Origin: a virus
Lineage: Duplodnaviria; Caudoviricetes
Direction: 5' to 3' (one strand)
IMG/VR virus record: IMGVR_UViG_3300029288_000151
Span: 10,666-74,665 of that record
Length of the DNA stretch: 64,000 nucleotides
Each line of letters begins with the position of its first letter. Position 1 is the stretch's first letter. Shown piece by piece: positions 9,985 through 62,866 of the stretch. The notes below the pieces were generated by a model. That model was not told the DNA's origin, did no database searches, and saw only the letters and a program-made list of their open reading frames with translations. Both the position numbers and the translations under genes were made by a program.

Positions 9985-12900
9985 TAGAGATTGCCTCCTA
10001 CGTTTGGATCCTGAGAGGCATTAAACCATCCGCCCGCAATGCTATCCAAAATATTCCAATTAATTGTAGCAAGGCTTTCTGAAATGTCTGTTCTGTCGTA
10101 CCCATCTTCAAAATCTTCACTCCATTGCACCCATTGACCCCAAAGATTAGCAAAAGAAGATGAGTATTTACTTGCTGCAGCAATACTTGTAAACGGTTTG
10201 CCCCCAAAATATAGAGGATTCATTGTAACCGGATTCCCTGTCTGGCTATGATGCATCAAGAAGAAAGCACCAATCATCATTCCCGCTTTTCCCATTGCGT
10301 TCATTGTAGAATTTTTACCATATAGAACAGTGTCTTTCATTTTGTCAAACAAGGAGACCTGTGTTGCTTTCTGCCTCGCGGCATCAGAAGAAGAGAGCCA
10401 TAACATTGATATAGTATTAAACATAGAATCAAACCACCCTTTGGTAGCCCAATCGTTAGAGTCAACAACCATGTCTGGAGTTATGATAGAGATAAACCCT
10501 TCTTCTTGATTAAAGATATGAATAACCTGTTCAACTTCTATTGGTCCATACATATCATTTACATTGTCCTGTAAACAGATTATGTCATAGGGCTTTATTG
10601 TCTCTTCGCCAATTAAGACAAGTTCTCCCTTATATGAGTCTTTTAACCCCTCAATCAAAAGACCCTGAGCATACCTTTTCGCCATCATCTCAGTAATACA
10701 AGATGGATATACCGCTTCATATTTTCTAATCATATGATCTGGAATATTATCATTTAGTTTCATCGTATAAGTTCCAGACTCTCCCATCTCCACCATTTCG
10801 GTATATTCCTTCGCCTCTCTTTCATTGCTAGTCTCATCTTTCACATCTTCGTCATTTGAATAACGGACTTCAACAGCATTAAAGGTATTCTGTACCGAAG
10901 TTCTTATCTCATTCTTAAGAATATGGTATTCAGAAGTTGCCATAAAATAATTTCTGAATGGTCGGTATCTACCAAAGATTCTGCCAAGGTAGAAACCTAA
11001 AGACCTATTATCTATGTTGTTCCCACTAGTTATAATAGCTTTATATAAATCTGGATTTATCTTACTAAGAGCTGCCAACTTTTGTTTGGTATTAGGATTG
11101 TTCATTATCTCTTTAAGATTTCCGGAAAGCTTACCATAAGAAGAAATCTGATCTGTCCAAAGAGTAGAAATTATTGATTCTTGTATTGTACAAGCTCGGC
11201 TCCAATAGTTTTGTCCTTTAGGGCCAAAGAACATCGTCATTCTTGGCGAGTGCCCGTATGGAACAGCAAGAGAAACATATCCGGGATGGCGTAACTCATG
11301 CTCTTTAAAAATTTCCCAAGGAGTAATCATTAAAGGGCGATAAGCACAGGCATTATTCCAGACCCGGTCTCCCGCACCAGAATAAACCGTATAAGGAGGA
11401 GGGAAAATATTATCATCCTGAGGCTGGTTTAAAAAGTTATTTTTCTTGAGCATAACATTCATACTCGCTTGCGCCCAAGAATCAAGAGGATTCAGACTAA
11501 GCAAATCAGTGCCATAACCACCAGTTAACTGACTTCTAACTTCTGCTGGATTATATGTTGGATTGAAATCTTGTCTACCAAAGTGCATAACAAATGGCTG
11601 TATGATTGCCGCAGACAAAGCTTGCATAGAAGAATAAAAGGTAACATCCTCTTCAAATGCCCCTACTGTGGACGCTTCAAGCTCTGCCCCGTATCCCTGA
11701 CATAAGATTTCAAGAATCTTCCCATCTTCATTTGGCTCAATCTCAACAATCTGACCAAGAAAAACCGTTTCTAAAACTTCACTATCATTAGCATAGCCGA
11801 GGCGAATTTGTACCTTTACCCCATCCTGCAAGATCATATTGGCAAAAGGATTCTCTCTGCTTGTCTCTGCAAAGAATCCAGTAGCGTCTTCTACTGCTTT
11901 TTCGTTAGCAAGTATCTGATCTTCTGTTTCTCCAAATCTTTTGCGTAATAAAATTCCAGCGACATTCGTCATTCTAATGATAGCAAGATCGGCAGCTACT
12001 TTTCTTGATCTAATAACTCTAATCTCTTGGATAGATGAGTAACTATAGAAGTCATCAAATGCTCTATAATTTTTAGTTCCCTGCTCACTGTCTTCGTCAA
12101 TGAAATAGATTCTAAATGTCGGATAGGCACGGCGCATAGAGATATCTTTCTTGCGCGAGCCGACAGAAAGTTCTGCGATAGAACGGGAAACAAGAGTGGC
12201 CGTATCAATCGTTGTGGCTGGAACAGAAGCAATTTTATTTAATGTTTGCTTTGTCTCTGCTATTTTTGATGTTATTTCTGCCGACGACGAAGACGCAATA
12301 ATTTGGTTGTTATTCTCAGAAGTCCCTTGTAAATCTGACCGATCAGACTCTGCCTCGGGAATATTCCGTTCTCCATTTAATCCACGATCGGTCTCTAAAC
12401 TATCTACATTCGGGCCGACAAGGAACTCTTTTGGAACTTCTACGACTCCGTCCTTTGTAACCGTACCATAGACAGAAGCCTTTATGTTCTCAATAGCCTG
12501 TTTCTTGTCTTGAACACTAAGCTGAGATCGGATTCCTTTATCAAGATAGTTTGTAAGATAAGGACTCATAAGAATTGTAGTATTTAAAAACCCATCAAAA
12601 GCCTGTTCTTCTAGCGTTCCTTGTTTTGCCGACAAGACAGAATACTTACTTAACAAATCAGAAGGAGAAAAAGTAACTGATTTCCCGAACATCCCTGCTG
12701 CAAACTGAACAGTATCGTACATAAAACTATTTACTTGCTGCGCTCGAAGAGCAAACCCTAAATTTATCGTTGCTCCAAGATTATTAAAGACACTGTATTC
12801 TCCACCAGAAAGCCAATTAGAAAAACCATATTCAATTCCAAATTGTTCATTCATATTTATTTTTGTTTCTCTAATTTTTGTCGCATTCACAGAAGCATAA

Positions 12901-42854: not shown

Positions 42855-45800
42855 CTACTCGCAGGTAATCTTTGTCTGCGAGACAATCATATCCCAAGTA
42901 ATCTGTTCGCCAAGAACGCCATTTCTCCTCATGCGGTCGAAAAGCAAAGCCGCTCTATTTTCTTCTTTATCCTGAAGGAATTCTCTCATTCTATTAACAA
43001 GTTCAAAATCAGTTTTTGACAAGCTTACCTTCTGGTCGTTATCTTTATCCGTCTTAATCGTGGGATCGTCAACCATTCCTTCGGGCTCTCTTGCAATCCC
43101 ACTAGTCATTTTATCAATAATCTTACCAAAGTCCACACTGTCAACAAAAGTTTTATAAATTATATCGAAATCTTTTGAATCTGTGAACTCGGCCTTTGCC
43201 TTGTCAAGACTGTCCTGTTTCCCAGTGGCCAGAGAGAGAAGAGCCGCATATTCTGTCTTTACACGACGCAGTTCCTGCCCTATCGTCACGCACTCGTCGA
43301 TAAGAATCTTATGCGAAGAGAACTCGTGCCGAAGCTCGTCGCGCAGGACAGAAACAGTGTCCTGAGAGCTAATAAGCTCCTTCTTCGCTTTGTCTTCTGC
43401 CTCTTTCGCTTCCGTTGCAGCCTTGAGACTGGAAACACACTCAGAGCACTCGCGCTTTACAGTAAGCTTGCGCTCAATCATGGTCGTTTCCACATCGGCA
43501 AACAGAGCCCGAAGCTCATCGTCTGTCAGGTCCTTCGGCTGTTTAACGGAATCAGTTGCGGGAGCAATAGGATCGGGCTGTGTATTTGGAGCCGAATCAC
43601 TGGAACCCGAAGAGCAACCAAGAGCCTTCGCCTTGCGTGCTACACAAGCAAGAATGCTCGTCTTGTTCCCCGGCCCCTTATAGCGGCCAATCAGGCGGCG
43701 AGCCGCTGTTACGTGAGAATTATGGACGAAGACCCCATTAGAGAGGGCAAAGTTATTAGTCCCTTCTACTTCAATGTCATAAACATCTTCTTTTGTGTCA
43801 AGTTTCTCGACGCTCATAACCTTATGGTTATAAAAATCTGCCTGCGTTAGGCTCTTGTCGTTAAGACGAGTTTTCAACCAAGCAAGAGAGATCTGCCCTT
43901 CTTGCCATTTATTTAGTATGGATTCTCGTGTTTCTTTAATTGTCGTCAGATTAAGGGTTAACTTATCAGTCTCGAATCCTGCTTTTTGGAACCATTTCTT
44001 TATCGTGAATCTGTCTATCTTATATTTGTCTTGTAGACTTGAGAAATTCGGATTTTCAAGATAATCACAATACATCTTCTCAAGATCTTGCCCAAAAGCT
44101 GCGGCAAAATAATCTTCTACAAGAGTTTTCGCTAATTCAGTTGGATGTTTGAATTCAGACAGATCCGCTTCATTAAGCCATCTTCTTATTGTAGAAGTTT
44201 CGACCTGTAGTCTCTCTGCAAGAAATTTTACTTCTACCCCAAGTTCCTTTGCAAAATAAATATCAACAAGACTAAGCCCAGAATTACCAATCTCCTCTTC
44301 TGGCCTGTTCCAATCGTAAGTCCTTTTCCCTTTCGAAATCGCATCGGAATGAGCAACAGAAAGAGCTTCATCCCCCAGAATGTGAGCCATCCTATTCTTC
44401 ATGAAGTTAGAACGAGCACGAACCTCTTCTATAGTCCGTGTTCTTTTGTCTTTATTCCCTGCGTCATGCAGTTTATGTAGTTTGCTATGATCTGCGCGAG
44501 AAATATATTCGAGGTTTTTTGGATCGTTGTTCTGTTTGTTCTCGTCGATATGATGAATTAGCTCTTCTTTCTTTGGAACCTGTCCAATGTCCTCGCGAGC
44601 GACCATGTGATGGGTGTATTCCCAATATTTGTACCATGGCTGGTATATCTTCTCATAAACAGCAGCTTGCCCAAACATTTCACTATCTTTGATATACAGA
44701 GGCATCAAAGACTGTTGCTCTTTAAGAGCAGAAGCCTCTACATATTCGAAGTCCCTTGTAAGAAATGGATGGTTTGGTGTACAGATAACAGTTTCGCTGT
44801 TGTCGAGAGTCACTTTAACGACATCTGCGGATACCTTCGCCTTCCATGCCGCAGTTACCTGTGCAGGGACAACTGCTTTCTGTCCCAGACTGAAGCTGTA
44901 GACCCAAACCTCTTGGCCTTCGTTCACTCTGCGAACAAGTTCCTGCATTTCTACTTCTTCGCCATTAAGCAATTTTATTTTCTGTTGGCCAGAAATACAA
45001 CAATCCGGGACAGGGAACGATCTACCCGGCCCACAGAAGGTCTTTTCTCCCAACTTGTTGCGCTGCTCAGAAGAAAGTTTGGCATCTTTCAGAGTTTCTT
45101 CTGATAAGATTCCATCCTTCGCCATGGCCGCCAACTCAACCTCCATCTGAGCATAGACCTCTTCTGCATCTATTGTCTGCCCCTGTGTCTCAAAATCTTC
45201 CAGGGCGTAAACAATATACGTTTTCTCGTCAATCTCCGCTTCGTCCTGCCCAAGATATTTCCCATCTTCCTGTTTTAACGCCATAATTTTCTTGGCGAAA
45301 TCAGCAAGGACAGAATCTTCTGCTTCTGGACGAGCTTCTTTAATGACTTCAAAAACTTTGCTTTCGTCGTCGTTTAGCTCAATGGGGGCACCATCTTTGA
45401 TCTCAATAATCATTCCTGTTGCCTCCTCTGAATCCCGAACTTCCCAAATCATCTGTGTCGGGAAAATCTCTTTATGAACCGGATCTTCTTCTTTAACAGA
45501 ATCGTAAGCGAACCCTTCCACTTCTACTGTAGTAAAAGGATCTGCATCAAAATTAACCAGGCTAAGCTCCTTGAAAAACATATTGCCGGGGATCAGATTA
45601 GCCTTTCTCTCAACTTCAGTGTCCTCGTCTTTGTACGTCTTCCCTGGAATATGTGAGCACATGCCGTCTTCTGGATCGAGCCAGTCTGCAAAACAAATGC
45701 TACAGAAAGCATGATCTGACCCAAAACCTACAGATACAGCATCAAACAGGCCAGACTCCATCTGCTCGATCGTAGTCGGATCAATAATATCGGCACCGAC

Positions 45801-46241
45801 TTTGACGTAGCCGAGTCCGCGCCATCCATCCGCCAGAACGGCTTTGCTTCTTAAGAAGGAGGCCATTGCCCGAACTTGCTTTTTGATTGGAGTCGCTTGA
45901 TCTATTAAAGCAAGAACATTTGGGTCCCCAACCAGATCTTGAGGGACCGTGTCTATATATTGGGCGGAAACGACTTTGCCAACCGGATCTGCATCTGGGT
46001 TATGATGCTTGAGGATCGGCGCACGCTTTCCCTTTGTGAAACTATCCGCGCCAATCCGCATCATGCTTGGCAAGTATGCCCGCTCATTCTTATTGGAAAT
46101 CGCAGAATGAGTTGCCTCAAAATACGTACGAAGTCGCCTTTTGCCGTTAAGAGAAGCGGAATCCTTGAATGTCTTCCACTGCTCTTCTGTCGGGTTTACA
46201 ATCTTATAACAATCTCGGAAAGATATAATTTTATTACTCAT
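42855..46241 (-). CDS. Prohead protease-scaffold fusion with intein (about 701 aa spliced)
   Basis: PILKHH, FDAVSVG, CSIC...CSHIPG and ELSLVN protease motifs; C-terminal coiled coil; Hint insertion. Confidence 0.88.
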   Translation of the reverse strand: MSNKIISFRDCYKIVNPTEEQWKTFKDSASLNGKRRLRTYFEATHSAISNKNERAYLPSMMRIGADSFTKGKRAPILKHHNPDADPVGKVVSAQYIDTVPQDLVGDPNVLALIDQATPIKKQVRAMASFLRSKAVLADGWRGLGYVKVGADIIDPTTIEQMESGLFDAVSVGFGSDHAFCSICFADWLDPEDGMCSHIPGKTYKDEDTEVERKANLIPGNMFFKELSLVNFDADPFTTVEVEGFAYDSVKEEDPVHKEIFPTQMIWEVRDSEEATGMIIEIKDGAPIELNDDESKVFEVIKEARPEAEDSVLADFAKKIMALKQEDGKYLGQDEAEIDEKTYIVYALEDFETQGQTIDAEEVYAQMEVELAAMAKDGILSEETLKDAKLSSEQRNKLGEKTFCGPGRSFPVPDCCISGQQKIKLLNGEEVEMQELVRRVNEGQEVWVYSFSLGQKAVVPAQVTAAWKAKVSADVVKVTLDNSETVICTPNHPFLTRDFEYVEASALKEQQSLMPLYIKDSEMFGQAAVYEKIYQPWYKYWEYTHHMVAREDIGQVPKKEELIHHIDENKQNNDPKNLEYISRADHSKLHKLHDAGNKDKRTRTIEEVRARSNFMKNRMAHILGDEALSVAHSDAISKGKRTYDWNRPEEEIGNSGLSLVDIYFAKELGVEVKFLAERLQVETSTIRRWLNEADLSEFKHPTELAKTLVEDYFAAAFGQDLEKMYCDYLENPNFSSLQDKYKIDRFTIKKWFQKAGFETDKLTLNLTTIKETRESILNKWQEGQISLAWLKTRLNDKSLTQADFYNHKVMSVEKLDTKEDVYDIEVEGTNNFALSNGVFVHNSHVTAARRLIGRYKGPGNKTSILACVARKAKALGCSSGSSDSAPNTQPDPIAPATDSVKQPKDLTDDELRALFADVETTMIERKLTVKRECSECVSSLKAATEAKEAEDKAKKELISSQDTVSVLRDELRHEFSSHKILIDECVTIGQELRRVKTEYAALLSLATGKQDSLDKAKAEFTDSKDFDIIYKTFVDSVDFGKIIDKMTSGIAREPEGMVDDPTIKTDKDNDQKVSLSKTDFELVNRMREFLQDKEENRAALLFDRMRRNGVLGEQITWDMIVSQTKITCE
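43719..44999 (-). mobile_element. Intein (427 aa) carrying an HNH endonuclease and HTH-like segments
   Basis: PDC|CISGQQKIKLLNG ... CTPNHPF ... HHMVA...IHHIDENKQNNDPKNL...HSKLH ... GVFVHN|SHV. Confidence 0.95.
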
Positions 46242-46258: not shown

Positions 46259-49200
46259 TTAATTGCGCGTTAGTCTACAATTGCACTCTGGATGTAGAGG
46301 AGGCAATTCTTCGTAGATTATAGCATCACCAGTTTTCCACCGCAAAGTGGATTTGCTACAGATTTCACAAGGTTGCGAATCTGAGCAAAGGAGAGAGATC
46401 TCTTCTGCCCCTTGTGCCTTATATCCGTCAGCTAATCCTGCGTTATAAGCACGTCTTATTTCGCCTTCGTCAATCATCTTGGCCCGATGAGCCAAAACCT
46501 TGAAGATGATACTGGCGGCTTCCGCATCTACGACAGAGAGTTCCTTGACTCCTACCAGATTGCTCTCTACCTGTTCGAAAACGTAATCACGGAGTTTATT
46601 TGTGAATCTGGTTACGTGCCGCTCTATCTTCGCGTCTGTTGGAGCAAGATTTATCTCATAATATGGTTTACTAGTGTCATTGATTCCAATTCGATAAGCC
46701 CGCTTGGCATGATCAACAAGTTTGTTCCTGCCAGTTTCAAAAGCAATACCAAATACTATTTTCGCTGTTTCTTTGTCCCATCCGCCGTTAGAGACCATGC
46801 CTCTTACGTCTTTCTCAAGGTCGTAAAGAACCGTCGACAGGGGCGGCCTTTGGGCAAAAATAGAATTAAGCTCAGAAGTAGCTCTGGCATCGTAACTGTC
46901 ATAACAGTCTTTGTTTAGCTTAGCTGAAGACCTAGTCCCGTGTTGATTTCGCGGCTTGTTCTTATTAGCCGCCGAACCAGACGCCTTAGCCGGTCTAGCC
47001 ACAGGCTTCGCTGTCTTTGCTACCTTCTTAGCCGCAAGTTCTTCTTTCCTATGTTGTTCTGCTACTTCTGTCTCTTCCTCTATATCTCCCTCTGTAACAG
47101 AGGTCGCATTAGAACGAGCAACAGCTTTGGATTCGGCCGACCATGGCTCGTCCAAGCTTTGCATCAAAACTTTGGGCTCTTCGATCTGCCGCCAATAAGA
47201 GTTAAGCCAGTCCTCTTCTGTGAAAGGCTCTTTTCCAATCGCGTCTCGTGCCTCATCATGAGACAATAGATTCTGCATATACATCTGCGAGCAATGATTC
47301 TCAAGAGCTTGTTTGACTTCGTTATCAATCTCTTTAAAAACCAGATAGACCTGATTCTCTTCGTCATCAAGAGATTCTTCCGGGAAGGTACTCTCTCTAA
47401 GAAGCTCTTTGATTACAAAAGTGTTTATAAAATCCTCAAAGATCCGCTGCTCTGACTTGGTCCTGTCAATAAGATTTCTCGACAATGTTTGCGCGGTCGA
47501 GTTCCCCTGGATACTAATCTTCCCATTCCGTCGCACAACTAATGTATGGTTTTGTGTCTCAAAACACCAGACTTTGTCTCTATAAAAGATCTTCTCAATC
47601 TGAGAAGTTCTAACTTCTACCGCCGCTTTAGGGTGGAAATTAACTCGCCCAACTCCTTGATGAGCAGGACCAAGAGCCGATCTCCATCCTATTCTCAGAG
47701 CTAACTCTTGGACATTATCTAATAATTCTTTACTACTAGAATAGTAACAAAATCCCTTTCTGTTTTCTCTAGAATCAAAGGATCCATCACCTAAAACCAG
47801 CGCGTTTAGTAAAATTTTTAGTTGCCGGGCAGACAGAGACAAAAATTCTCGGGGTATCTTTTTGTTGTCACTATAAGTTCCAACACTATCTGCTAAATAT
47901 ACCCATAACGATTTACAATTAATCCAAAATCTTGAGCATTCATCACCATCAACAGAAATATATTCGTTAAATTTAAAAGGCAGCCTCTCAAGCAAAGACC
48001 GTATTTTAACTACTTTCCCCAGATTTACTCTGTTGCTCTGGGAAATAGAAAGCGCCCATTTCCCTTCGACTTTCGCTAAAGTACCCTCACTGATAAAATA
48101 ACCCAGGAACTCTAACCAGTCATCCATATTAATATTATTAAACGGGCCTAGATTTTCATGGTTTGTAATCCTCTTGTCGTAATCAATCTGAGGAAGGTTA
48201 AAATTTATTCGTTCGATATTTTTAGTCTCAGAAGAAGAGGTTAGCAGACAGAACTTTTTGACCCGAATATCCCCAACTTCCCTAAATTCCCAAACAGGAG
48301 CTTTTTTGTATTTATAATTGCCATAATATAGTTTATGGTTCGGAGTTATACATAAATCAATATGACGATTTTTTACCTTGTGTAATTCCCCTTCATAATC
48401 AAATAGAAGCAGTCCGTCTTTCGGCTCCTGAAACTCAAGCTGCTGACTATCCCTGTTAATAGTCGCGACTAAATCATTTTCAGAGTATTCCCAATAATAT
48501 TTCCAACCATGATCAGTAAGTATTTGCGTATCTTTATCAAAACACCTATTGGCAGATCCGCCTTCTCCCATGTCGACATTGCTTACACCAAGGCCAGAGA
48601 ACACTCTCTGTTTAAAATGCTCAAGAACATCTTTTGGGTCAAGAGCTTTTCCCTCAGAACCCTTAACCTCGATCTCGTGCCTTTCTGGTGTGACCCAAAG
48701 ACCATCCGACGGCATACTAGCCAGTTCTCTTTGAACTAACTCTATCTCTGTAGTCCCATCTGGGAACGTCATTGCCGGATTTTTCTCTGTGCCGACTTTA
48801 TAATGGAAGAGGGGGAATAAATATTGATAGTAAAGTAATTCAATATTTTCTTCTATCCTGCGCAGCGCACGGATATCATCTTTTATTGGAACAGTGATTG
48901 GAGTTCCAACGGAAAACCCGTCTCTCTTGTCAAAGTAGAAATGAATTACATCCTCCGGATTAAACTCTACTTCTTCTTTTCCCCAAACACTTTGTCTGTA
49001 TTTTAATATCCTGCCATATTCATCTCTCTTGAAACGAATCGTTTCTGCCGGAGCAATGAAATACCCAGCCACAGGATCGAATGTTTGTCCATTCAGTTTG
49101 TATGATTTACCACCAGAAGCTTTCTTATCCCGCTTCTTAACCCAAAATGCATTATGCAAAGCGATAAGAGACCCGACCGTACGCTGGAACAAAATCTTTA

Positions 49201-49558
49201 TTGGGATGCCGGTGGCGGCCTCTATCTGTTGGAAACGCCTACGAACATAAGAGACCCTTGTTGGGTTTTGACCAACAAACTCGTATCCTTCTTTCATAAA
49301 GAGCGCTTCTCTCACAGCAAACGCTCTGCGCACGTACGCCTCAACGTCAATTATTCGGCCAACTTCTGCCAAGTCCCATTCGGGCGCTTCCCACATCGCG
49401 CTAACGACACGACTTCTGCCCATGTTGTGAGTGTAAGCTTTAACGGGCGACGGGATAATAACAGGAGTAACCGCTTCCTTCTTTGGCAAGAAACCAGAGG
49501 TCTCATCTTCCTTATATTTTACTCTTGCAAGAGGACGCTCTGTTGTCTCATCCGCCAT
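46259..49558 (-). CDS. Portal protein with intein and C-terminal MuF-like head morphogenesis domain (about 751 aa spliced)
   Basis: Portal motifs (IRFKRDEYG, FNPEDVIHF, GFSVGTP); C-terminal CEIC...PPLHPECNC; position between terminase and protease. Confidence 0.88.
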   Translation of the reverse strand: MADETTERPLARVKYKEDETSGFLPKKEAVTPVIIPSPVKAYTHNMGRSRVVSAMWEAPEWDLAEVGRIIDVEAYVRRAFAVREALFMKEGYEFVGQNPTRVSYVRRRFQQIEAATGIPIKILFQRTVGSLIALHNAFWVKKRDKKASGGKSYKLNGQTFDPVAGYFIAPAETIRFKRDEYGRILKYRQSVWGKEEVEFNPEDVIHFYFDKRDGFSVGTPITVPIKDDIRALRRIEENIELLYYQYLFPLFHYKVGTEKNPAMTFPDGTTEIELVQRELASMPSDGLWVTPERHEIEVKGSEGKALDPKDVLEHFKQRVFSGLGVSNVDMGEGGSANRCFDKDTQILTDHGWKYYWEYSENDLVATINRDSQQLEFQEPKDGLLLFDYEGELHKVKNRHIDLCITPNHKLYYGNYKYKKAPVWEFREVGDIRVKKFCLLTSSSETKNIERINFNLPQIDYDKRITNHENLGPFNNINMDDWLEFLGYFISEGTLAKVEGKWALSISQSNRVNLGKVVKIRSLLERLPFKFNEYISVDGDECSRFWINCKSLWVYLADSVGTYSDNKKIPREFLSLSARQLKILLNALVLGDGSFDSRENRKGFCYYSSSKELLDNVQELALRIGWRSALGPAHQGVGRVNFHPKAAVEVRTSQIEKIFYRDKVWCFETQNHTLVVRRNGKISIQGNSTAQTLSRNLIDRTKSEQRIFEDFINTFVIKELLRESTFPEESLDDEENQVYLVFKEIDNEVKQALENHCSQMYMQNLLSHDEARDAIGKEPFTEEDWLNSYWRQIEEPKVLMQSLDEPWSAESKAVARSNATSVTEGDIEEETEVAEQHRKEELAAKKVAKTAKPVARPAKASGSAANKNKPRNQHGTRSSAKLNKDCYDSYDARATSELNSIFAQRPPLSTVLYDLEKDVRGMVSNGGWDKETAKIVFGIAFETGRNKLVDHAKRAYRIGINDTSKPYYEINLAPTDAKIERHVTRFTNKLRDYVFEQVESNLVGVKELSVVDAEAASIIFKVLAHRAKMIDEGEIRRAYNAGLADGYKAQGAEEISLLCSDSQPCEICSKSTLRWKTGDAIIYEELPPLHPECNCRLTRN
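47501..48544 (-). mobile_element. Intein (348 aa) with LAGLIDADG endonuclease and Gly-Asn C-terminus
   Basis: ANR|CFDKDTQILTDHG ... ITPNH ... FLGYFISEG ... ALVLGDG ... RRNGKISIQGN|STA. Confidence 0.93.
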
Positions 49559-52612: not shown

Positions 52613-54562
52613 CTAAATGTTACTCCGGATTCCCAGCCTGCCGCGCTTTTTCTTTCTAAGTCGTTGCTGCCTTTTCTCTTCTTCTATCCCTTCCATATCA
52701 TATTCCCAGCCAGGACGAGAAGAACCAACCATCTGATTTGGGCTGACCCTGGCTGGCAGATGAGCACCGAATAATTCCATCGCAGGACTTTCTAATTTGG
52801 TTTGTAGATTTGTCCTATTATCTCCCAAATCTCTAGATCTATTAGACTCTACGTTATTTGAGACTTTCTGTCTAGGGCTCAAAGATGACAAAGCAGCCAC
52901 AATTGGATCACTTTGTTTCATCCATCCAAATTCTATATAAAATCCTACAATCGCCAAATTTAAAGCATCAAGTTTATGATCTTTGACGCGCCCATCAAGC
53001 CCACCATAAACTGGCGTTCCAGTTGGAGAAATCCTTTCTATGATGTAGTTGCGAATCTGTTTTTCCAATTCTTTGTCCGCCGAAGAAATTCTCATCCTGT
53101 CTTGCTCAAAAGCTCTGATGGAGGCATTAACCATAAACGGTTTAGCTGGGACTTTCCTCTCTTCACGAGTAACAGGATCTTTAGACAGGATAGACGCTCC
53201 AGAATCGTATTTCCTGAGGATATCTAACAGTCTAGCAGTATCAGGATCTCCGCCTTTCCTACGTTCCTCGTAACTCATTTTCCTGAGCAGCTCATAATTT
53301 GAACTACCATTACCACTATCTGCATAAATAATAGACGGTCTCCATTTCTTATTAAGATCAACAAGGGCTTGAACGCCGTTCAACTGTGTAAACTCAGAAC
53401 TACCCACAGAGACAGCCTCTACTACCTGAAAATAATTTCCGGATATATTCTGGCCCAAGACTACAAGCTCGGCTCCGTGTTTTTCGTTCCAGTCCGCGCC
53501 AATGGAGTACCGCCACCCATAAGTTGGAGATTGATCTTTATACAGATAAGACCGCAAAGACCTCTCTACATATGCTGGCCGATAAACACCTTCTTCTGAG
53601 AACCCCCATTGTGCCTCTAATTCTTGAAGCCACTGAGACTCTGTATAATTAATCTTATCTTTTTCTACCTCGCGCCAGTGAGGTAATACTCTATAACTAT
53701 AGAAAAATTCCCTGTATCTAGGGTCGTCTTCACAGATCTTATAATAGATGCTCTTAAACCCCGTCGGCGTACCGAAGCCAGTAAAAGTGACTCGACCTGT
53801 CGTTTGCAGAATTGGGAACAGGCCACCAACAACAGCTTGTTCGTCTATATAAGCAAGCTCTTCTGCAAATATATGGTCGGCCGAACTACCACGCACAGAC
53901 ATGCCTTCTGTTTTGCCGCGCGTGCCAAGAGCAAACCCCTTAATGCTTGACCCGTTCTTTAAAACAATCTCATAGATAGGAGAAGAGATGTCTTTCTCCA
54001 CGGAAGTAGCCAATAGTGGGTTTCGATACAAGAAGCTGCGAATTCTCTTGAAAATTTCTTCAGCATGGATCTTCTGTGGAGCGGCGACAACGATTCTCTG
54101 ATTGTCTTTAGTGGTAGCAAGGAATGTAATGGATACCGATACTAATTCCGTTTTTCCGCTTCTACGGGCGATTCTTAAAGCTTTTCGGGCACTTGAACAA
54201 CGCATTACTTCTTCTTGATAATGGCGCGGAATCCAAGGATCCCCATTTGGATGTGTTAACCATTTCTGCGCCCAGAGAACTGGATCCATCAATTCGTTTG
54301 CCTGCTTCCATTCTTCGGCAGAAAATAAAGGTTTAAGTTTCAGGTCAATTGGGTCCTTGGGTACGCCAGCACAATCTACAATGAATCTATTCTTCAGTGA
54401 TTTGCCAAATTCATCAGTAGCGTTTTGAAACTTTTTAATTTGGCGCCGAACACAAGCAACACATTGAGGTCGGACTTCCTCGATCTTAAACGGAAGAGAG
54501 ATCTTCGCTAAGTCAGATAAATCTGAGGTGTCGTATAATTCTTTGTCGTCTTCTTGAGCCAT
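52613..54562 (-). CDS. terL: Terminase large subunit
   Basis: Q motif PRHYQ, Walker A ARRSGKT, Walker B HIFAEE, coupling motif FGTP, nuclease acidic residues IGADW, YADS, DHKLDA. Confidence 0.93.
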   Translation of the reverse strand: MAQEDDKELYDTSDLSDLAKISLPFKIEEVRPQCVACVRRQIKKFQNATDEFGKSLKNRFIVDCAGVPKDPIDLKLKPLFSAEEWKQANELMDPVLWAQKWLTHPNGDPWIPRHYQEEVMRCSSARKALRIARRSGKTELVSVSITFLATTKDNQRIVVAAPQKIHAEEIFKRIRSFLYRNPLLATSVEKDISSPIYEIVLKNGSSIKGFALGTRGKTEGMSVRGSSADHIFAEELAYIDEQAVVGGLFPILQTTGRVTFTGFGTPTGFKSIYYKICEDDPRYREFFYSYRVLPHWREVEKDKINYTESQWLQELEAQWGFSEEGVYRPAYVERSLRSYLYKDQSPTYGWRYSIGADWNEKHGAELVVLGQNISGNYFQVVEAVSVGSSEFTQLNGVQALVDLNKKWRPSIIYADSGNGSSNYELLRKMSYEERRKGGDPDTARLLDILRKYDSGASILSKDPVTREERKVPAKPFMVNASIRAFEQDRMRISSADKELEKQIRNYIIERISPTGTPVYGGLDGRVKDHKLDALNLAIVGFYIEFGWMKQSDPIVAALSSLSPRQKVSNNVESNRSRDLGDNRTNLQTKLESPAMELFGAHLPARVSPNQMVGSSRPGWEYDMEGIEEEKRQQRLRKKKRGRLGIRSNI

Positions 54563-54567
54563 AAGAA

Positions 54568-55305
54568 CTACCTGTGGAGCATCATGCCTTCTTGGCCGAG
54601 CCCGGATCGGGCACTCATCATTCCTTGATTCATCAATTGTAGAGACATCTGTCTCATCGTAGAAGCCTTAGCACCCGTAAAAGCTGTGTTATCGCCAACC
54701 CAATTGAACTTTCTAGATCTCCTAGAGGTTTCAACAACTTTGTCCAGCTGGCCTACTGTACCACGAACAAGAACGTCTCCAAGGGCATAGCCGCCGAAAG
54801 AACCGACTAGCCAACCAACGCCTGCCCCAAGCGCAGTCCCAATTCCAGGCAAGATAGCAGATCCTATTCCAGCGCCTACAGACCTACCTACGTTGCTCCC
54901 AACGCGCCATCCCACGTTACCAGCCATAGCGCCAGCAGCAGCTGTTGCTTTTTCTTTTGGGCCGCCTGACTCAGCAAAAGCAGCGTAAGCCACAAAAGCA
55001 GATCCTAATGCTGCGCCACCAATCCCACCGCCCTTGCCTCCTAATTTACCTTTAGCAGCCAACCCACGCTCTTTTCCTATAAATTCTCCAACTCTTGGGT
55101 TTTTTGCGGCCATCCGTTCAAGCCGTTCAAAGTATTCACTCGATCCTCTATGAGTAGAACCCCATGGTCTTGTCCCCTGTGGAGAAAAAGCATAAGCTGC
55201 CAGCCCTCCTTGGGCGAAATTACCAGCAAAAGCCTGTTGCCCAAAAGAGTAAAGGCCACTCTCTAGCTTACCAACTTTTGATTTTGATTCTTGTAAAAAA
55301 GACAC
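54568..55305 (-). CDS. Glycine-zipper membrane-type protein (candidate ejection protein)
   Basis: Long GxxxG runs (GAGIGSAILPGIGTALGAGVGWLVG); GTG start. Confidence 0.65.
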   Translation of the reverse strand: MSFLQESKSKVGKLESGLYSFGQQAFAGNFAQGGLAAYAFSPQGTRPWGSTHRGSSEYFERLERMAAKNPRVGEFIGKERGLAAKGKLGGKGGGIGGAALGSAFVAYAAFAESGGPKEKATAAAGAMAGNVGWRVGSNVGRSVGAGIGSAILPGIGTALGAGVGWLVGSFGGYALGDVLVRGTVGQLDKVVETSRRSRKFNWVGDNTAFTGAKASTMRQMSLQLMNQGMMSARSGLGQEGMMLHR

Positions 55306-55306
55306 T

Positions 55307-55891
55307 CTATCTTCCGCCTATGCCGAATTTTCTTCTAAATCTATCTTTTAGCTCCGATCCAGACGCCTCCAGTCTAGATAGATTTTTAATCATCGCTGGC
55401 CTTGACCTCATAGATGCGTTCGCGGCTGCAGAAGACAAACCTAGATATCCGGCCAAAGCCACTCCTCTAGTAGAACGAGAAAGGCTGCTCATTCTTGAGT
55501 GGATTCCATTCCTTATCTCGCTCATAAAAGAAGATCTTGCTGCGCCCTGTTGAGCCGAACCTGGAAATCTTTTAGCAAGCTCTCTGCGCCCCCAACTCTT
55601 AGACATCGGCCTTATCCCGCTAGCCTGAAGGCCAGCAAATCTTTGTCTGGTCGCAGAACCAGCAGCACCAAAACGGGCCATACTAGCTCCTTTGCCTACC
55701 GCTCGCATGCCCGCGTATCCGCCTATGCCTCCGATGCCAGCGCCAATTGCTGCACCATAAAGTCGATTGCCAGGATCTGCGTTATAGGCTCCCAGCCCAG
55801 CGCCTACCACAAGGCCAGCCCCACCAGTTCTTAACGCATTCCTTCTGGCAAAACCAGAGATGCCTCTTAATACATTACCAGCACCCGGCAT
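55307..55891 (-). CDS. Glycine-zipper, Arg-rich protein (candidate ejection protein)
   Basis: GAGLVVGAGLG...GAAIGAGIGGIGG; AGGAGG RBS. Confidence 0.65.
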   Translation of the reverse strand: MPGAGNVLRGISGFARRNALRTGGAGLVVGAGLGAYNADPGNRLYGAAIGAGIGGIGGYAGMRAVGKGASMARFGAAGSATRQRFAGLQASGIRPMSKSWGRRELAKRFPGSAQQGAARSSFMSEIRNGIHSRMSSLSRSTRGVALAGYLGLSSAAANASMRSRPAMIKNLSRLEASGSELKDRFRRKFGIGGR

Positions 55892-55936: not shown

Positions 55937-58639
55937 TTAGCGCTTTGTGGCATAAGACCTTTTCGCTGCGCTGACACTGTGCATCTTTGATCCTTTGCTG
56001 GCATTGATAAACGGCACAGCATTAACCCCTTGCGATATCTTCCTTAGCGATTCTCCTGGGTTATTCGCGTTCTTAACAACATTAGAAAGACTTACTCCTG
56101 AAGCTCTTGGTGCCGGAAGACTTGGGATAATATCACTAATCATTCCTCCTATCTCTTTCTCAAAACTAGAGAACTCGGGGAACATCAACTTCTTAATCCT
56201 CTCTTCTTCCAAAAGACGAGCTTTTTCTAGCGCAACAAGTTCTTCTCCCGCTTCGGCACCCCAAAGAGATTGTTCTGGCATCATGGCTTTGTGCCTAGCC
56301 ATGGCCTCTTCTAGTTTCTTCGCGTTCTCTCGTCTCGCTAGAATCACATTAGCGAAATGCTCTGCATTCTTATAAGGCATTCTGTCTGGAGTCAGAGGAA
56401 CAAGATCCTCCTCAGCTTTTGCTCCTCTTGCCCTCTTGATGATTCCAATCCCTGTCTCTTGTTGCGCCGAGAACAAAACAGTATCCGCTTTCTCTGCCGC
56501 CCGCCGAGCCGCCTTCTCTTTGGCCGCCGGGAGAACTCGGGCGACAAGTTCCTTCTCGCTCTTAATCGTCCATTTTTGCCAAGGTCCTTTCCCTGAAAGA
56601 TTAACAGCCTGATTGCCCCGACCCGGTCGGAAGAACTGGACGAGCCTATCCGCAAAGCCAGAGCCGAAATCAGAATTATTCTTAACCGCTAACGCGCCGA
56701 GAGTGTTCTCTGCAAGAGGATGAATCCCCTCTAAAGAAGATGGAGTATATTCTGCAAGCCCCGACATATCATCAGAGAGACCCTTGATCTGCCGCTGCAT
56801 TCTTTCTGCTGCTGTGAAAGGGTCTATCTTGTTCTGCGCCGACCCAAAGTCAATCCATGATGTTCTTCCTGATGTTGGGTCGTACATCACATTTCTGCGA
56901 CTTATGTCTTCGTTCAGGAATCCTTTCTTTGACAGGGCAAAAGCTTGCTCTTCTACATCTTTTAGAACAGACTTTGGAAGTTTTATCCCGGCCTCTTTGA
57001 ATTTTTCGAGTGTTTGGCCAGGCATGTACTCCATGAAGAGTTTGCCTTCGTGCATCCCATAAGTGGCTGGCATAATATCGCCATCTAAAGATCGCAACGC
57101 CCCGTATTCATTTTCTAATGTTTTTTGGCCAAAAGAGTAGAGCCGCTCTCCTTGTGGGAGAGCTTTGAGTTCTTCTAATGTCTCTTTCATGACATATTGG
57201 AACTTCTCTCCTCCGACCTCTGCTTCATGCAGGAAAGCCCTTCCGAACCCACCATGACCAATCTCTCTTATCCTGCGACCACTCTTCATCGCATCTATAA
57301 AAGACGTGCTCTCTAGCATAGAAGCGATTGAGCCATTTTTGCTTCCAAAGAATTTTTCGGCAAGCCTTTTTGCCGGATCCCAACGAGAAGCGAAATCCTT
57401 TTTAAACTCAGTTAGTTTATCACGGGTTTCTGCTGCAAAAGTTCCACTATTGGGCATGCCTGAGAACTTTTGACCCACAAAGGCATTCGGGCCAAACCTT
57501 CTCCTGAGCGCGCGGCCAAGACGTCTTGAAGTGGCAACCTCTTCTCCGGTAAGCTCTCTCTCTTCGTCGCCAAATCCTTGTAGATAAGTTCCATATGCGC
57601 CGAGCATAAGGTTTCTGGAAAGCCTTGTAAGCTCGGTAAAAGTATTAAAGGTTATTGGCTGCCCGGTCGCTTCTGAAGCCTCATGGATGGCCTTGTAGCG
57701 CGCCAGACTCCAAATGCCTTCGTCTCTGAAACGAGCCTGCTCTTCTGCTCCGGCTGCAGCCTCACGACTGATTATGTCTCCCGATTTCTTGCCGAAAGGC
57801 AAAGCTGCGACCATGCCTTCTCTTAACAGGCTAAGAGAAAGATTTTCTCCTTCGTCGCCGACTAAAACACCAAGACTTCTGCCGTATGTTTGGTCCGAGC
57901 CAATAAGAAGCCTGAGGTCTCCTTGCTCGTCTATTAACCGACTAAGCCTTTCCGCCGCTTCTTCCCCGCCCGGCTGGCTTTGCCAGATACGGACTTCTTC
58001 CATTGGGTCGGCGGCATGACCGGCTGTTTCGGGGGCATCAATACCTGATAGACGGACAGAGATAGACGGAGAAAGTAAATTGGTTAGTCCCCGGCGCTTA
58101 AGGAGAATAGTATCTGCGTCTTCTGCTGTTATCTTGAAATCAGAGAGGCGGACTTCTTTGAGCCCAGTGGTCTTGGCTAAGCCTTCAACTCCAGCCAAGT
58201 TTGGAGCGAAGAGATCAGTGCCCCTGAACTGGCCCAGCTGAGCTTGCGAAGCAGCTTGCTTTTTATTCAGCCGCGCCTCAAGGGCAGACCATTCATCAGA
58301 ATCATCAATTACATTTTCTCTGAATCTCAGGACTTCAGGATCTATAGGGACACCAAGGAGAGAGGTTGGCAATCCTCTGTAGCCAGAGCCAAAGTCAGAG
58401 CCAGCCCGAACTTCTGCCGCGCCCAAGCCGGTTGAGTCCGGATGGATGCCTTCTATGGTATTGTATTGGTCATCATAACCGCCAGAAACACGGTCCCATT
58501 CCTTCTTCTTCTCTTTCTTCTTGCTTGTTTCTTCGGACAGGAACTGGATAAACTCATCTAGGATAGTGCTCTCACCCGAAACGACCTCAGTTGTCGCCTC
58601 CGGCGCCTTAAGTATGGCGTCTAATAAGGTTTGACCCAA
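55937..58639 (-). CDS. Multidomain protein: thermonuclease (SNase-like) plus protein kinase, with repeated linker motifs
   Basis: SNase: DADT, VRLSGIDAPE, TYGR, ARFRDEGIW. Kinase: IGHGGFG, VMK, ENE, NEDISRRN, DFG. Confidence 0.85.
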   Translation of the reverse strand: MGQTLLDAILKAPEATTEVVSGESTILDEFIQFLSEETSKKKEKKKEWDRVSGGYDDQYNTIEGIHPDSTGLGAAEVRAGSDFGSGYRGLPTSLLGVPIDPEVLRFRENVIDDSDEWSALEARLNKKQAASQAQLGQFRGTDLFAPNLAGVEGLAKTTGLKEVRLSDFKITAEDADTILLKRRGLTNLLSPSISVRLSGIDAPETAGHAADPMEEVRIWQSQPGGEEAAERLSRLIDEQGDLRLLIGSDQTYGRSLGVLVGDEGENLSLSLLREGMVAALPFGKKSGDIISREAAAGAEEQARFRDEGIWSLARYKAIHEASEATGQPITFNTFTELTRLSRNLMLGAYGTYLQGFGDEERELTGEEVATSRRLGRALRRRFGPNAFVGQKFSGMPNSGTFAAETRDKLTEFKKDFASRWDPAKRLAEKFFGSKNGSIASMLESTSFIDAMKSGRRIREIGHGGFGRAFLHEAEVGGEKFQYVMKETLEELKALPQGERLYSFGQKTLENEYGALRSLDGDIMPATYGMHEGKLFMEYMPGQTLEKFKEAGIKLPKSVLKDVEEQAFALSKKGFLNEDISRRNVMYDPTSGRTSWIDFGSAQNKIDPFTAAERMQRQIKGLSDDMSGLAEYTPSSLEGIHPLAENTLGALAVKNNSDFGSGFADRLVQFFRPGRGNQAVNLSGKGPWQKWTIKSEKELVARVLPAAKEKAARRAAEKADTVLFSAQQETGIGIIKRARGAKAEEDLVPLTPDRMPYKNAEHFANVILARRENAKKLEEAMARHKAMMPEQSLWGAEAGEELVALEKARLLEEERIKKLMFPEFSSFEKEIGGMISDIIPSLPAPRASGVSLSNVVKNANNPGESLRKISQGVNAVPFINASKGSKMHSVSAAKRSYATKR

Positions 58640-58652
58640 TAACCATCATTCC

Positions 58653-59450
58653 TTAGGGGATAGCTTCCCAGTCGGCCTCAATAACCTTAGAATCTGTTTT
58701 GGCTTCTTCTACTATTTTACCAAGTTCTTTAGTAGAAGTAGCTTTCTGCATCTTCTCAATTGTCTTGCGCAATTCGGCCAAATGGGTGGAAACGTCTGCA
58801 CTGCTCTTCTGCTTGAGAGCAGCGGCTTTCTTGTACTGTTCTTTCCTTGTGACCGCAAAGGACTCAAGGATCTGCAACCTACGCTTGTTGAGCTTTTCCT
58901 TGATCTCCAGTAAAGGATGAGGGATTGTGCTCTCCATTACCTTCTCTTCGCTTTCTGTCCTTATCGTAGTCAACAATCTTGGTCCGTCTTCTTTGTCGCC
59001 GGATAAAGCCACATTGGCCCGATAGCCAAGGAGGTCTATCTCGACCAATTCATTAACCAGAACCATCTCATAGGTATTTTGCGGATCAACATCGAGGCTC
59101 TGAACATATTCCTTTGTCTGAACCCGGATGTAATTGGACTCCAGAGGGCATGCTCTCCCGACGGGCCACCGTTCTGTTATCGGACACCTAACTCCCATCG
59201 GGCACTTATGCGGCGAAGCACAGAGCATCGGCACGAAGGCAGAGACGCCTGTCTTCATCCGGCGCACATGATTCATGAACCTTTGTGCTTCCTGAGGCGT
59301 CATCTTGATGTCACTGTAATCGTCTAGATCTATATCAAGGAAATCAAACATCTTGGTTCTGGATAAAGAACCATCCTGTTTAATCAAGGTGCCATCAAGC
59401 TTTATAATGGCGACATCATCCATCTTGCCCGAATTAACTCCACCCATCAA
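58653..59450 (-). CDS. Four-Cys (possible zinc-binding) helical protein; possible small terminase
   Basis: C-x5-C-x5-C-x11-C, then a helical Lys/Glu-rich part; nearest plausible TerS-sized gene upstream of terL (inference only). Confidence 0.4.
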   Translation of the reverse strand: MMGGVNSGKMDDVAIIKLDGTLIKQDGSLSRTKMFDFLDIDLDDYSDIKMTPQEAQRFMNHVRRMKTGVSAFVPMLCASPHKCPMGVRCPITERWPVGRACPLESNYIRVQTKEYVQSLDVDPQNTYEMVLVNELVEIDLLGYRANVALSGDKEDGPRLLTTIRTESEEKVMESTIPHPLLEIKEKLNKRRLQILESFAVTRKEQYKKAAALKQKSSADVSTHLAELRKTIEKMQKATSTKELGKIVEEAKTDSKVIEADWEAIP

Positions 59451-61214: not shown

Positions 61215-61592
61215 TTACTGCCCGCCAAGAAGAAACCGCTTTTCCTTGGCCTTCTCTTCGACCGGAATATGAATCCTCAGGATCCCTTCGTCAAGCGAAA
61301 CTTTCGCTCTCTCAACATCCATTGCTTCTTTGAGCGCGATAGACCTATCGATATTACACTTGAATTTGTCGGTGATGTCCTGGCGTGTGATGTTGGAGCC
61401 CTGAATTCGAAGAGTATGGCCTTCATTCCATATCTTGAGGTCTTCTTTCTTGAACCCTGCCAGGGCAAACTGAAGCTCTACCGCTAAAGGATTGTTTTCT
61501 TTATCAAAAATTGGAAGGAAGGAGCCTGGCGGCTTAGGATCGTTCGGCCAATAATAAAAAAACACATCTATAACATTCTGCTGGATAAACAT
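61215..61592 (-). CDS. Small heat-shock protein (Hsp20/alpha-crystallin)
   Basis: FALAGFKKEDLKI...LRIQG...AKVSLDEGILRIHIP. Confidence 0.9.
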   Translation of the reverse strand: MFIQQNVIDVFFYYWPNDPKPPGSFLPIFDKENNPLAVELQFALAGFKKEDLKIWNEGHTLRIQGSNITRQDITDKFKCNIDRSIALKEAMDVERAKVSLDEGILRIHIPVEEKAKEKRFLLGGQ

Positions 61593-62354: not shown

Positions 62355-62780
62355 TCATTCTTTGCCGAAGAGCAACTTCTTTTCAGAAGCAATTTCCTTC
62401 ATTGGAATATAGACAGACAGAATACCGTCTTCGAATTTTATATCAATTTTGCTCGTATCCAGATTCTTTTGCAGAACGACTTTCTTTTCAAATCTGCTCT
62501 TGAAGCGTTCAGAGATATCCCTTTCTCTGTTATCCCCGTAGATGTAGAGCTTATCCCCTTCCAGCGAAACACTAAGGTCCTCTTTTCTGTAGCCCGCCAC
62601 GGCAACTTCCACCTGTGCTCCAATCAGGTTCTTTTCTTTATAGATCGGCCGAACGGACATTGGGGGTTTGGTGTCTGACTGCGGCCAATCGTAGAAGAAC
62701 AGTCTGATGAATTCATCAAGGTCTGCAAATGGGGAAATGAACGGGGCTAGATTACACTCTCTCTTTTGGAAATAAACCAT
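62355..62780 (-). CDS. Small heat-shock protein (Hsp20/alpha-crystallin)
   Basis: VAVAGYRKEDLSVSLEGDKLYIYG...IKFEDGILSVYIP; AGGAGG RBS. Confidence 0.92.
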   Translation of the reverse strand: MVYFQKRECNLAPFISPFADLDEFIRLFFYDWPQSDTKPPMSVRPIYKEKNLIGAQVEVAVAGYRKEDLSVSLEGDKLYIYGDNRERDISERFKSRFEKKVVLQKNLDTSKIDIKFEDGILSVYIPMKEIASEKKLLFGKE

Positions 62781-62838: not shown

Positions 62839-62866
62839 ATTATAACCACTGATTTTTTCTTGTCAA
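62839..62866 (-). promoter_or_regulatory. Consensus sigma70 promoter for the right sHSP gene
   Basis: TTGACA-16 bp-TATAAT, both hexamers perfect. Confidence 0.8.

Follow-up and report, generated by a model that had tools for sequence, protein, structure and literature searches.

A modular nuclease-kinase protein with recurrent peptide joints, encoded beside the terminase gene of an uncultured contractile-tailed phage

This work concerns a modular nuclease-kinase protein, P0001, encoded by a single open reading frame (ORF) at 55937..58639 on the minus strand of a 64,000-nucleotide (nt) window, the whole stretch of DNA that was analysed (positions 10,666 to 74,665 of the IMG/VR virus record IMGVR_UViG_3300029288_000151). 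The ORF encodes 900 amino acids (aa) plus a stop codon. It comprises a nuclease module of the staphylococcal nuclease type (SNase; residues 94-385, 57485..58360) and a minimal protein-kinase-like module (residues 423-628, 56756..57373). These modules are bordered by copies of a short linker and followed by long helices and a basic C-terminal tail, and all of these features lie on the minus strand. The TTG start codon is supported by the homolog P0002, the N-terminus of which aligns with P0001 from residue 1 onward in BLAST. A comparison of the window with contigs from two other metagenomes listed 18 differences within the ORF, of which 16 are synonymous and two nonsynonymous, and the gene is therefore under purifying selection.

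The nuclease module consists of an SNase core (about residues 160-320) with helical extensions on both sides. It displays the motifs DADT (174-177), VRLSGIDAPE (195-204), YGR (252-254) and GIW (308-310), and Pfam SNase (PF00565) matches residues 195-311 with 46.6 bits, above the gathering score of 21 bits. When the SNase part alone was compared with PDB sequences using phmmer, no match at E 0.01 was obtained, but the fold search did find SNase. Foldseek aligned the module to the nuclease of Staphylococcus aureus with template modelling (TM) scores of 0.77-0.81 (normalised by target), and the entries 1ey4 and 2eyl, both with a TM score of 0.81 by target and a root-mean-square deviation of 3.1, identify the SNase oligonucleotide/oligosaccharide-binding (OB) fold. 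In a whole-protein AlphaFold2 (AF2) model built with 46 family sequences, the module (~90-385) has a predicted local distance difference test (pLDDT) value of about 95. Residues D174, D176, R196, D201, E204 and R254 are invariant in 55 of 55 aligned family SNase modules, and we take D176, R196, D201, E204 and R254 to be the equivalents of D21, R35, D40, E43 and R87 of the S. aureus nuclease. The SNase domain is thus real, with all catalytic residues present. Like the S. aureus nuclease, it has an OB-fold core and every Ca-binding and catalytic residue. It differs from that enzyme in that it forms part of a 290-residue module with added helices flanking it, carries a 20-residue insert after the DAPE motif, lacks a signal peptide and belongs to a phage polyprotein.

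The kinase-like module is composed of an N-lobe, a hinge, a catalytic loop and a DFG motif, followed by a single helix. Its motifs are GHGGFG (461-466), VMK (483-485), ENE (509-511), NEDISRRN (576-583) and DFG (597-599). A preliminary description of this DNA, made from the letters alone, had called for profile searches per domain. While the SNase exceeds its threshold, P0001 by itself stays below the Pkinase cut-off of 31.7 bits (PF00069, residues 457-603; 18.7 bits, or 21.4 bits when this part was scanned alone), and it is the family profile and the fold that confirm the kinase. Homologs do score above the Pfam thresholds for ABC1 or Pkinase, among them P0019 with 33.5 bits for Pkinase. A ten-member family profile, run against PDB, retrieved Hanks-type Ser/Thr kinases (E about 1e-12) in alignments that match up the catalytic loop and DFG. 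In the whole-protein AF2 model, the module (~420-628) has a pLDDT of about 95; folded alone with AF2, it reaches 95.2, and Foldseek matches it to Rio1 and many protein kinases. An exhaustive structural comparison with VIA-align ranked Rio2 and Rad53 (both Z 16.1), PknB (15.4), Rio1 (15.1), the kinase of a class III lanthipeptide synthetase (14.6) and Bud32 (13.8), with PKG also among the top ranks.

An alignment of 125 kinase domains shows no variation at E511, D578 and N583; G463 and D597 are kept in 124, K485 in 123 and G466 in 119. The idea of a pseudokinase was rejected on the basis of this conservation. Together with the mostly synonymous strain differences, the conserved catalytic residues indicate that both enzymes are real and maintained by selection. 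The preliminary description had proposed that a thermonuclease and a kinase, both intact, are fused in one protein. This is borne out, as both motif sets are located inside the one ORF and their residues are invariant or nearly so family-wide; every motif it listed is present, and its numbering of D578 and D597 is exact.

After DFG, the AF2 model shows only a single helix (607-625) and then disordered linker, which indicates that the activation segment and most of the C-lobe are absent; neither an activation segment with APE nor a C-lobe of helices alphaF to alphaI was found. We consider the kinase-like domain secure, with a predicted bilobal core fold and a truncated C-lobe. Its likeness to Rio1/Rio2, Bud32, PknB and StkP lies in the N-lobe, the hinge, the catalytic loop (D..N) and DFG. 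Identity to Rio, Bud32 and Hanks-type kinases is only 14-19%, and the phage kinase has no Rio flexible loop, winged helix, activation segment or APE, with a single helix following DFG instead. Structurally it is thus nearest to the Rio and Hanks-type kinases, with most of the C-lobe missing. Phage T7 also encodes a kinase with a presumed role in host re-programming, gp0.7, which is made early and is not part of the virion; this comparison is an analogy of role only.

The modules are separated by a recurring peptide joint. A short segment is repeated within P0001 (about residues 54-90 and 634-662) and recurs at the domain borders of homologs in BLAST. It measures about 35 residues and follows the consensus F-S-G-x-D-D-x-Y-N-T-I-E-G-L-x-H-x-G-x-A...R-[KR]..T-D-F-G-S-G-[WYF], with 167 copies across 171 family proteins. 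Low-confidence segments of the whole-protein model are found at residues 48-87, 387-418 and 635-695, after which long helices are predicted with moderate to low confidence. Linker copy 1 (residues 54-93, ..YNTIEGIHP..SDFGSGY.., 58361..58480) scores 54 bits with a hidden Markov model (HMM) of the linker and has a pLDDT of 36-55. The partial copy 3 (residues 634-665, ..SLEGIHP..SDFGSGF.., 56645..56740) scores 22.6 bits and has a pLDDT of 31-50. Both are predicted to be disordered. Directly before the kinase, a variant linker is present (residues 386-422, FSGMPN..DFASRWD, 57374..57484). The same pre-kinase variant, FS[GA]MPN..LTEFK.DFASRWD, is kept at about residue 560-600 of the modular protein of a related phage (L001). 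Since it is retained in two phages with proteins that are ~44% identical, it appears to be a maintained subtype and not a decayed copy.

Borders of the BLAST high-scoring segment pairs between P0001 and its family pile up at the linkers, most of them at residues 380-419. The joints thus mark the module borders, with enzyme modules exchanged at a defined peptide joint. Codons at invariant linker residues vary freely between phages, which indicates that the constraint acts on the peptide and not on the DNA; conservation of the joint as a DNA element for recombination was accordingly rejected. No paper mentioning the joint was found in a full-text literature search with linker words (DFGSGW, TDFGSG and similar).

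The protein ends in a basic tail (residues 866-900, ..ASKGSKMH.., 55940..56044) with the family signature A-x-N-G-G-[KR]-x-H, which occurs in three variants and lies 10-25 residues from the C-terminus in most family members. The tail is preceded by long charged helices (residues 695-885, 55985..56557), which are poorly conserved and common only to P0003 and P0035. At the other end, residues 1-53 (58481..58639) form an N-terminal segment with an AF2 helix at 23-51 that is shared with the closest homolog only (P0002, BLAST). HMMs of the linker and the tail were run against all ORFs of the window and of the first related loci without detecting a second carrier. As no other protein in this set was matched, the possibility that scaffold or other head proteins share the linker or tail was dropped.

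A second form of the locus was observed in contigs of two metagenome runs (landfill and groundwater), in which position 57440 is joined to 55939. The former is the third base of codon 400, within the variant linker, and the latter is the first base of the stop codon. The depth of this joined form is approximately that of the full-length form, and its short side spans 30 letters only. The junction weakly suggests a co-existing allele in which the kinase and the C-terminal half are deleted or replaced, possibly with extra letters between the joined positions.

Relatives of P0001 are numerous and differ in module content. A whole-protein word-indexed search identified 29 relatives of 659-1533 aa, and an exhaustive HMMER search with residues 385-670 retrieved 178 cluster representatives at E 0.001 or better. 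We then compared 35 related loci, each with one modular ORF per phage. These ORFs range from 457 to 2411 aa and contain one to five linkers. The kinase is present in 24 loci, SNase in 14, both in 10 and the tail in 26, while two loci have two kinases. Kinase-only and nuclease-only members as well as members with neither module all occur, and the order of the modules varies, with SNase before kinase in some loci and kinase before SNase in others. Among 41 kinase-bearing members without SNase, seven carry a DEDD exonuclease (RNase_T), two an RNase H-like domain (RNase_H_2) and one a zincin/zinc peptidase.

As module content and order vary among loci, the SNase-kinase pairing is one shuffle of independent modules, and P0001 represents one arrangement within a modular family, not an enzyme built specifically from these two domains. 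A nuclease is frequently paired with a kinase, although SNase with kinase is one combination among many. The preliminary description had read the protein as a 'two-warhead' effector. A specific design of this kind is not supported, given that both domains co-occur in only 10 of the 35 loci, that their order is reversed in some and that other nucleases take the place of SNase.

The window belongs to an IMG/VR contig of 74.7 kb with an estimated completeness of 39%, and its DNA was detected in landfill and groundwater metagenomes. It encodes proteins of a contractile-tailed phage, including a sheath, a baseplate wedge, an HK97-type capsid protein, an intein-bearing portal and a tape-measure-like protein. 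More than 400 cluster relatives of the capsid protein were identified, on contigs of up to about 198 kb. The modular gene is located in a tight block on the minus strand with the order HSP20, small genes, HSP20, small genes, 265-aa protein, modular protein, two glycine-rich proteins, large terminase subunit (TerL), two small proteins, 631-aa protein and portal; capsid genes are also part of this block. Its upstream neighbour, the 265-aa protein (58653..59450, minus strand), is a TerS-like candidate based on a weak Atlas structural lead to Terminase_4 clusters; a weak lead to YonG clusters was also obtained. This protein has a Cys-rich stretch and a charged helical C-terminus, and its gene often overlaps the modular gene in related loci. 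Downstream, two small glycine-rich genes (194 and 245 aa; 54568..55891, minus strand) separate the modular gene from TerL (52613..54562, minus strand; phrog_2 at 7e-26, Terminase_6N). TerL is ~31% identical to the TerL of Moorella phage MTATph1 and of Bacillus jumbo phages.

This arrangement recurs in related phages. TerL was found downstream of the modular gene, on the same strand, in 33 of 34 related loci, and homologs of the 265-aa protein occur upstream in 30 of the 34; TerL identity across these loci falls as low as about 28%. In 13 of them, TerL is directly preceded by a homolog of the 245-aa glycine-rich protein. Gene order thus places the modular gene in a fixed slot between the TerS-like gene and TerL, within the head-assembly block of a large uncultured clade of contractile-tailed phages. 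The location in a packaging and morphogenesis region, next to glycine-rich genes and the terminase, had been noted in the preliminary description and agrees with these counts. A perfect sigma-70 consensus promoter (TTGACA, 16 nt, TATAAT; 12/12) is present at 62839..62866 on the minus strand, 4.2 kb upstream of the modular gene; it lies immediately ahead of the gene that opens the minus-strand block extending past the modular gene to TerL. When 185,579 species-representative prokaryote genomes were scanned for the motif pattern, with limited sensitivity, four pattern matches were obtained, none of which was confirmed. In Bacillus phage vB_BceM_WH1, the cultured phage with the nearest TerL among those inspected, no comparable gene is present upstream of TerL.

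The closest published concept is that of the polyvalent proteins of phages and plasmids (Iyer, Burroughs, Anand, de Souza and Aravind 2017; PMC5512222), in which truncated kinases, nucleases and peptidases are combined and for which packaging and injection have been argued. That paper makes no mention of SNase (PMC5512222). P0001 and its relatives have at least two unrelated effector-type domains in one phage polypeptide and architectures that are shuffled among relatives, and they fit this multi-domain, shuffled definition. We therefore describe P0001 as a member of a phage 'enzyme string' family, a kind of polyvalent protein in which modules are joined by a disordered peptide of ~35 residues and followed by a helical region and a basic tail. 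The two groups share a single phage polypeptide with several unrelated catalytic domains, rapid domain shuffling and a proposed co-delivery with DNA. What sets the modular family apart is the lack of MuF or any other described anchor domain, a 35-residue joint and basic tail of its own, and a fixed position of its gene, flanked by the TerS-like gene and TerL. The published polyvalent kinase clade is characterised by loss of the C-terminal subdomain, a conserved Gln in the final N-lobe strand and an insert separating His from Asp within the catalytic loop (PMC5512222). The phage kinase has likewise lost its C-terminal subdomain, but the other two features are absent: it has a conserved M536-E537 in place of Gln and an N-x-D-I-H-x-x-N loop with no insert.

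The interpretation that we prefer, although we place it a little short of an even chance, is that the protein enters the procapsid, is cut at its joints and is expelled together with the DNA, so that its modules act as independent early effectors. This interpretation builds on the intact enzymes, the conserved disordered joints, the tail and the constant position of the gene in the head-assembly block. The protein would be made together with the head proteins and taken into the procapsid via its C-terminal region, and a phage protease would probably cut the string at the joints. The nuclease and kinase, once freed, would then exit alongside the DNA and, at the onset of infection, target nucleic acids and proteins of the host. 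Packaging and expulsion with the DNA is also the reading given for polyvalent proteins (PMC5512222). We further propose, more tentatively, that the joint and the tail could form a dedicated cargo system, in which the tail loads the protein, a protease cuts each joint and any enzyme placed between joints becomes an injected effector. The logic of such a plug-and-play effector cassette in a capsid would resemble that of MARTX and polymorphic toxins. Packaged phage enzymes include Alt and the internal proteins of T4, DarB of P1 and the virion RNA polymerase of N4, and MARTX proteins are multi-effector toxins that are cut at inter-domain sites. The parallel with T4 Alt, P1 DarB, N4 virion RNA polymerase and MARTX is limited to a shared proposed logic (particle-borne enzymes or cleaved effector strings) and involves no homology.

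Several observations weigh against a packaged protein. Packaging, injection and joint cleavage are steps that we infer, and neither MuF nor another known packaging anchor was recognised in P0001; the only, weak, match to Phage_Mu_F in the window is located at the end of the portal ORF. The tail is not detectable in nine of the 35 loci. With no other carrier in the window or the related loci, the linker and tail do not appear to be a general processing signal of head proteins. There is no cultured relative, as tblastn against 50,697 deposited phage genomes gave no match. Expression timing is left open by the sigma-70 promoter at the head of the block. Storing an active non-specific nuclease next to the genome would require some means of keeping it in check, and no inhibitor was identified. 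Neutral between the readings is a predicted complex of the tail (residues 835-900) with the major capsid protein, which scored 0.00.

The main rival is a string of cytoplasmic enzymes that never enters the virion. Such a protein would degrade host nucleic acids while its kinase re-programmes host or phage proteins, and the linkers would be flexible joints that tolerate shuffling. This possibility, to which we assign a clearly smaller chance, is in line with the intactness of both enzymes, with a consensus promoter that permits expression by the host RNA polymerase, with the absence of a recognised packaging anchor and with a linker that is exclusive to the modular protein. It leaves unexplained, however, why a 35-residue joint and a tail are conserved at the protein level across proteins that are only 25-30% identical, and why the gene keeps its slot between the TerS-like gene and TerL throughout the clade.

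A separate question, compatible with any delivery scenario, is whether the kinase-like module acts on proteins at all. It could instead be a sugar or small-molecule kinase, or an ATPase switch of the Rio/Bud32 type. The best matches of the single sequence among PDB sequences, obtained with phmmer and weak, are the kinase domain of WbdD, a sugar kinase (E 0.005), and Rio2. Family members match the ABC1, Kdo, APH and RIO1 models besides Pkinase, and the C-lobe, which binds protein substrates, is missing. On the other hand, the closest similarity of the family profile is to Hanks-type Ser/Thr kinases, and PknB, Rad53 and PKG stand alongside Rio among the best structural matches. Moreover, OspG and other minimal effector kinases phosphorylate proteins although they lack a complete C-lobe. 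We judge a non-protein kinase rather doubtful: both the profile and the fold favour protein Ser/Thr kinases and Rio, with other substrates possible given the missing C-lobe and the weak matches to sugar and small-molecule kinases.

An accessory role in head assembly or packaging, with a helical C-terminus resembling that of a scaffold or terminase partner and enzymes that serve assembly (DNA end processing, phosphorylation), would suit the slot between the TerS-like gene and TerL as well as the long charged helices and basic tail, which are reminiscent of scaffolding proteins. We consider this role unlikely, since an essential function in assembly fits poorly with the free variation of modules, including kinase-only, nuclease-only and module-free members, and the C-terminal helical region is itself poorly conserved. 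Least probable is an extracellular helper that is released at lysis to clear DNA from lysate or biofilm and help progeny virions disperse: enzymes of the staphylococcal nuclease family are typically extracellular and require millimolar Ca, but the modular protein has no signal peptide, the kinase would have no role, and the linkers, tail and synteny would go unexplained.

If the modular protein is indeed carried in the particle, abundant uncultured large environmental phages would deliver a changeable, ready-made set of enzymes along with their DNA. This set would include kinases, which are not known as virion cargo, and the joint would be a natural portable signal to load foreign proteins into a capsid or to release them. 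If it is not packaged, the family still provides a clear case of enzyme-module exchange at a defined peptide joint, and a large set of minimal kinases.

Further observations concern the remainder of the contig. Two HSP20/alpha-crystallin genes (62355..62780 and 61215..61592, both on the minus strand) head the block that contains the modular gene, and at the corresponding position the related phages L001, L006 and L007 carry HSP20 together with a Cpn10 (GroES) gene. The contig of the window ends about 5.4 kb upstream of the modular gene, and those of 13 related IMG/VR loci (L013, L015, L016, L018, L020, L024, L026 and L029-L034) end 1-7 kb upstream of it. Contig ends near the start of the head block may reflect either a genome terminus or a recurrent assembly break. 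The portal ORF (46259..49558, minus strand; 1099 aa) contains a LAGLIDADG intein; at residues 1023-1096, its extreme C-terminus, it also matches Phage_Mu_F weakly (19.2 bits, less than the cut-off), and it may encode a portal-MuF fusion. An adjacent ORF (42855..46241, minus strand; 1128 aa) harbours an HNH-bearing intein at residues about 424-841. A search for a prohead protease in its residues 1-423 gave no match in PDB, NCBIfam or Pfam, and the same residues gave weak Atlas leads to the S78, S77 and S80 families of prohead serine proteases (score 0.82-0.83).

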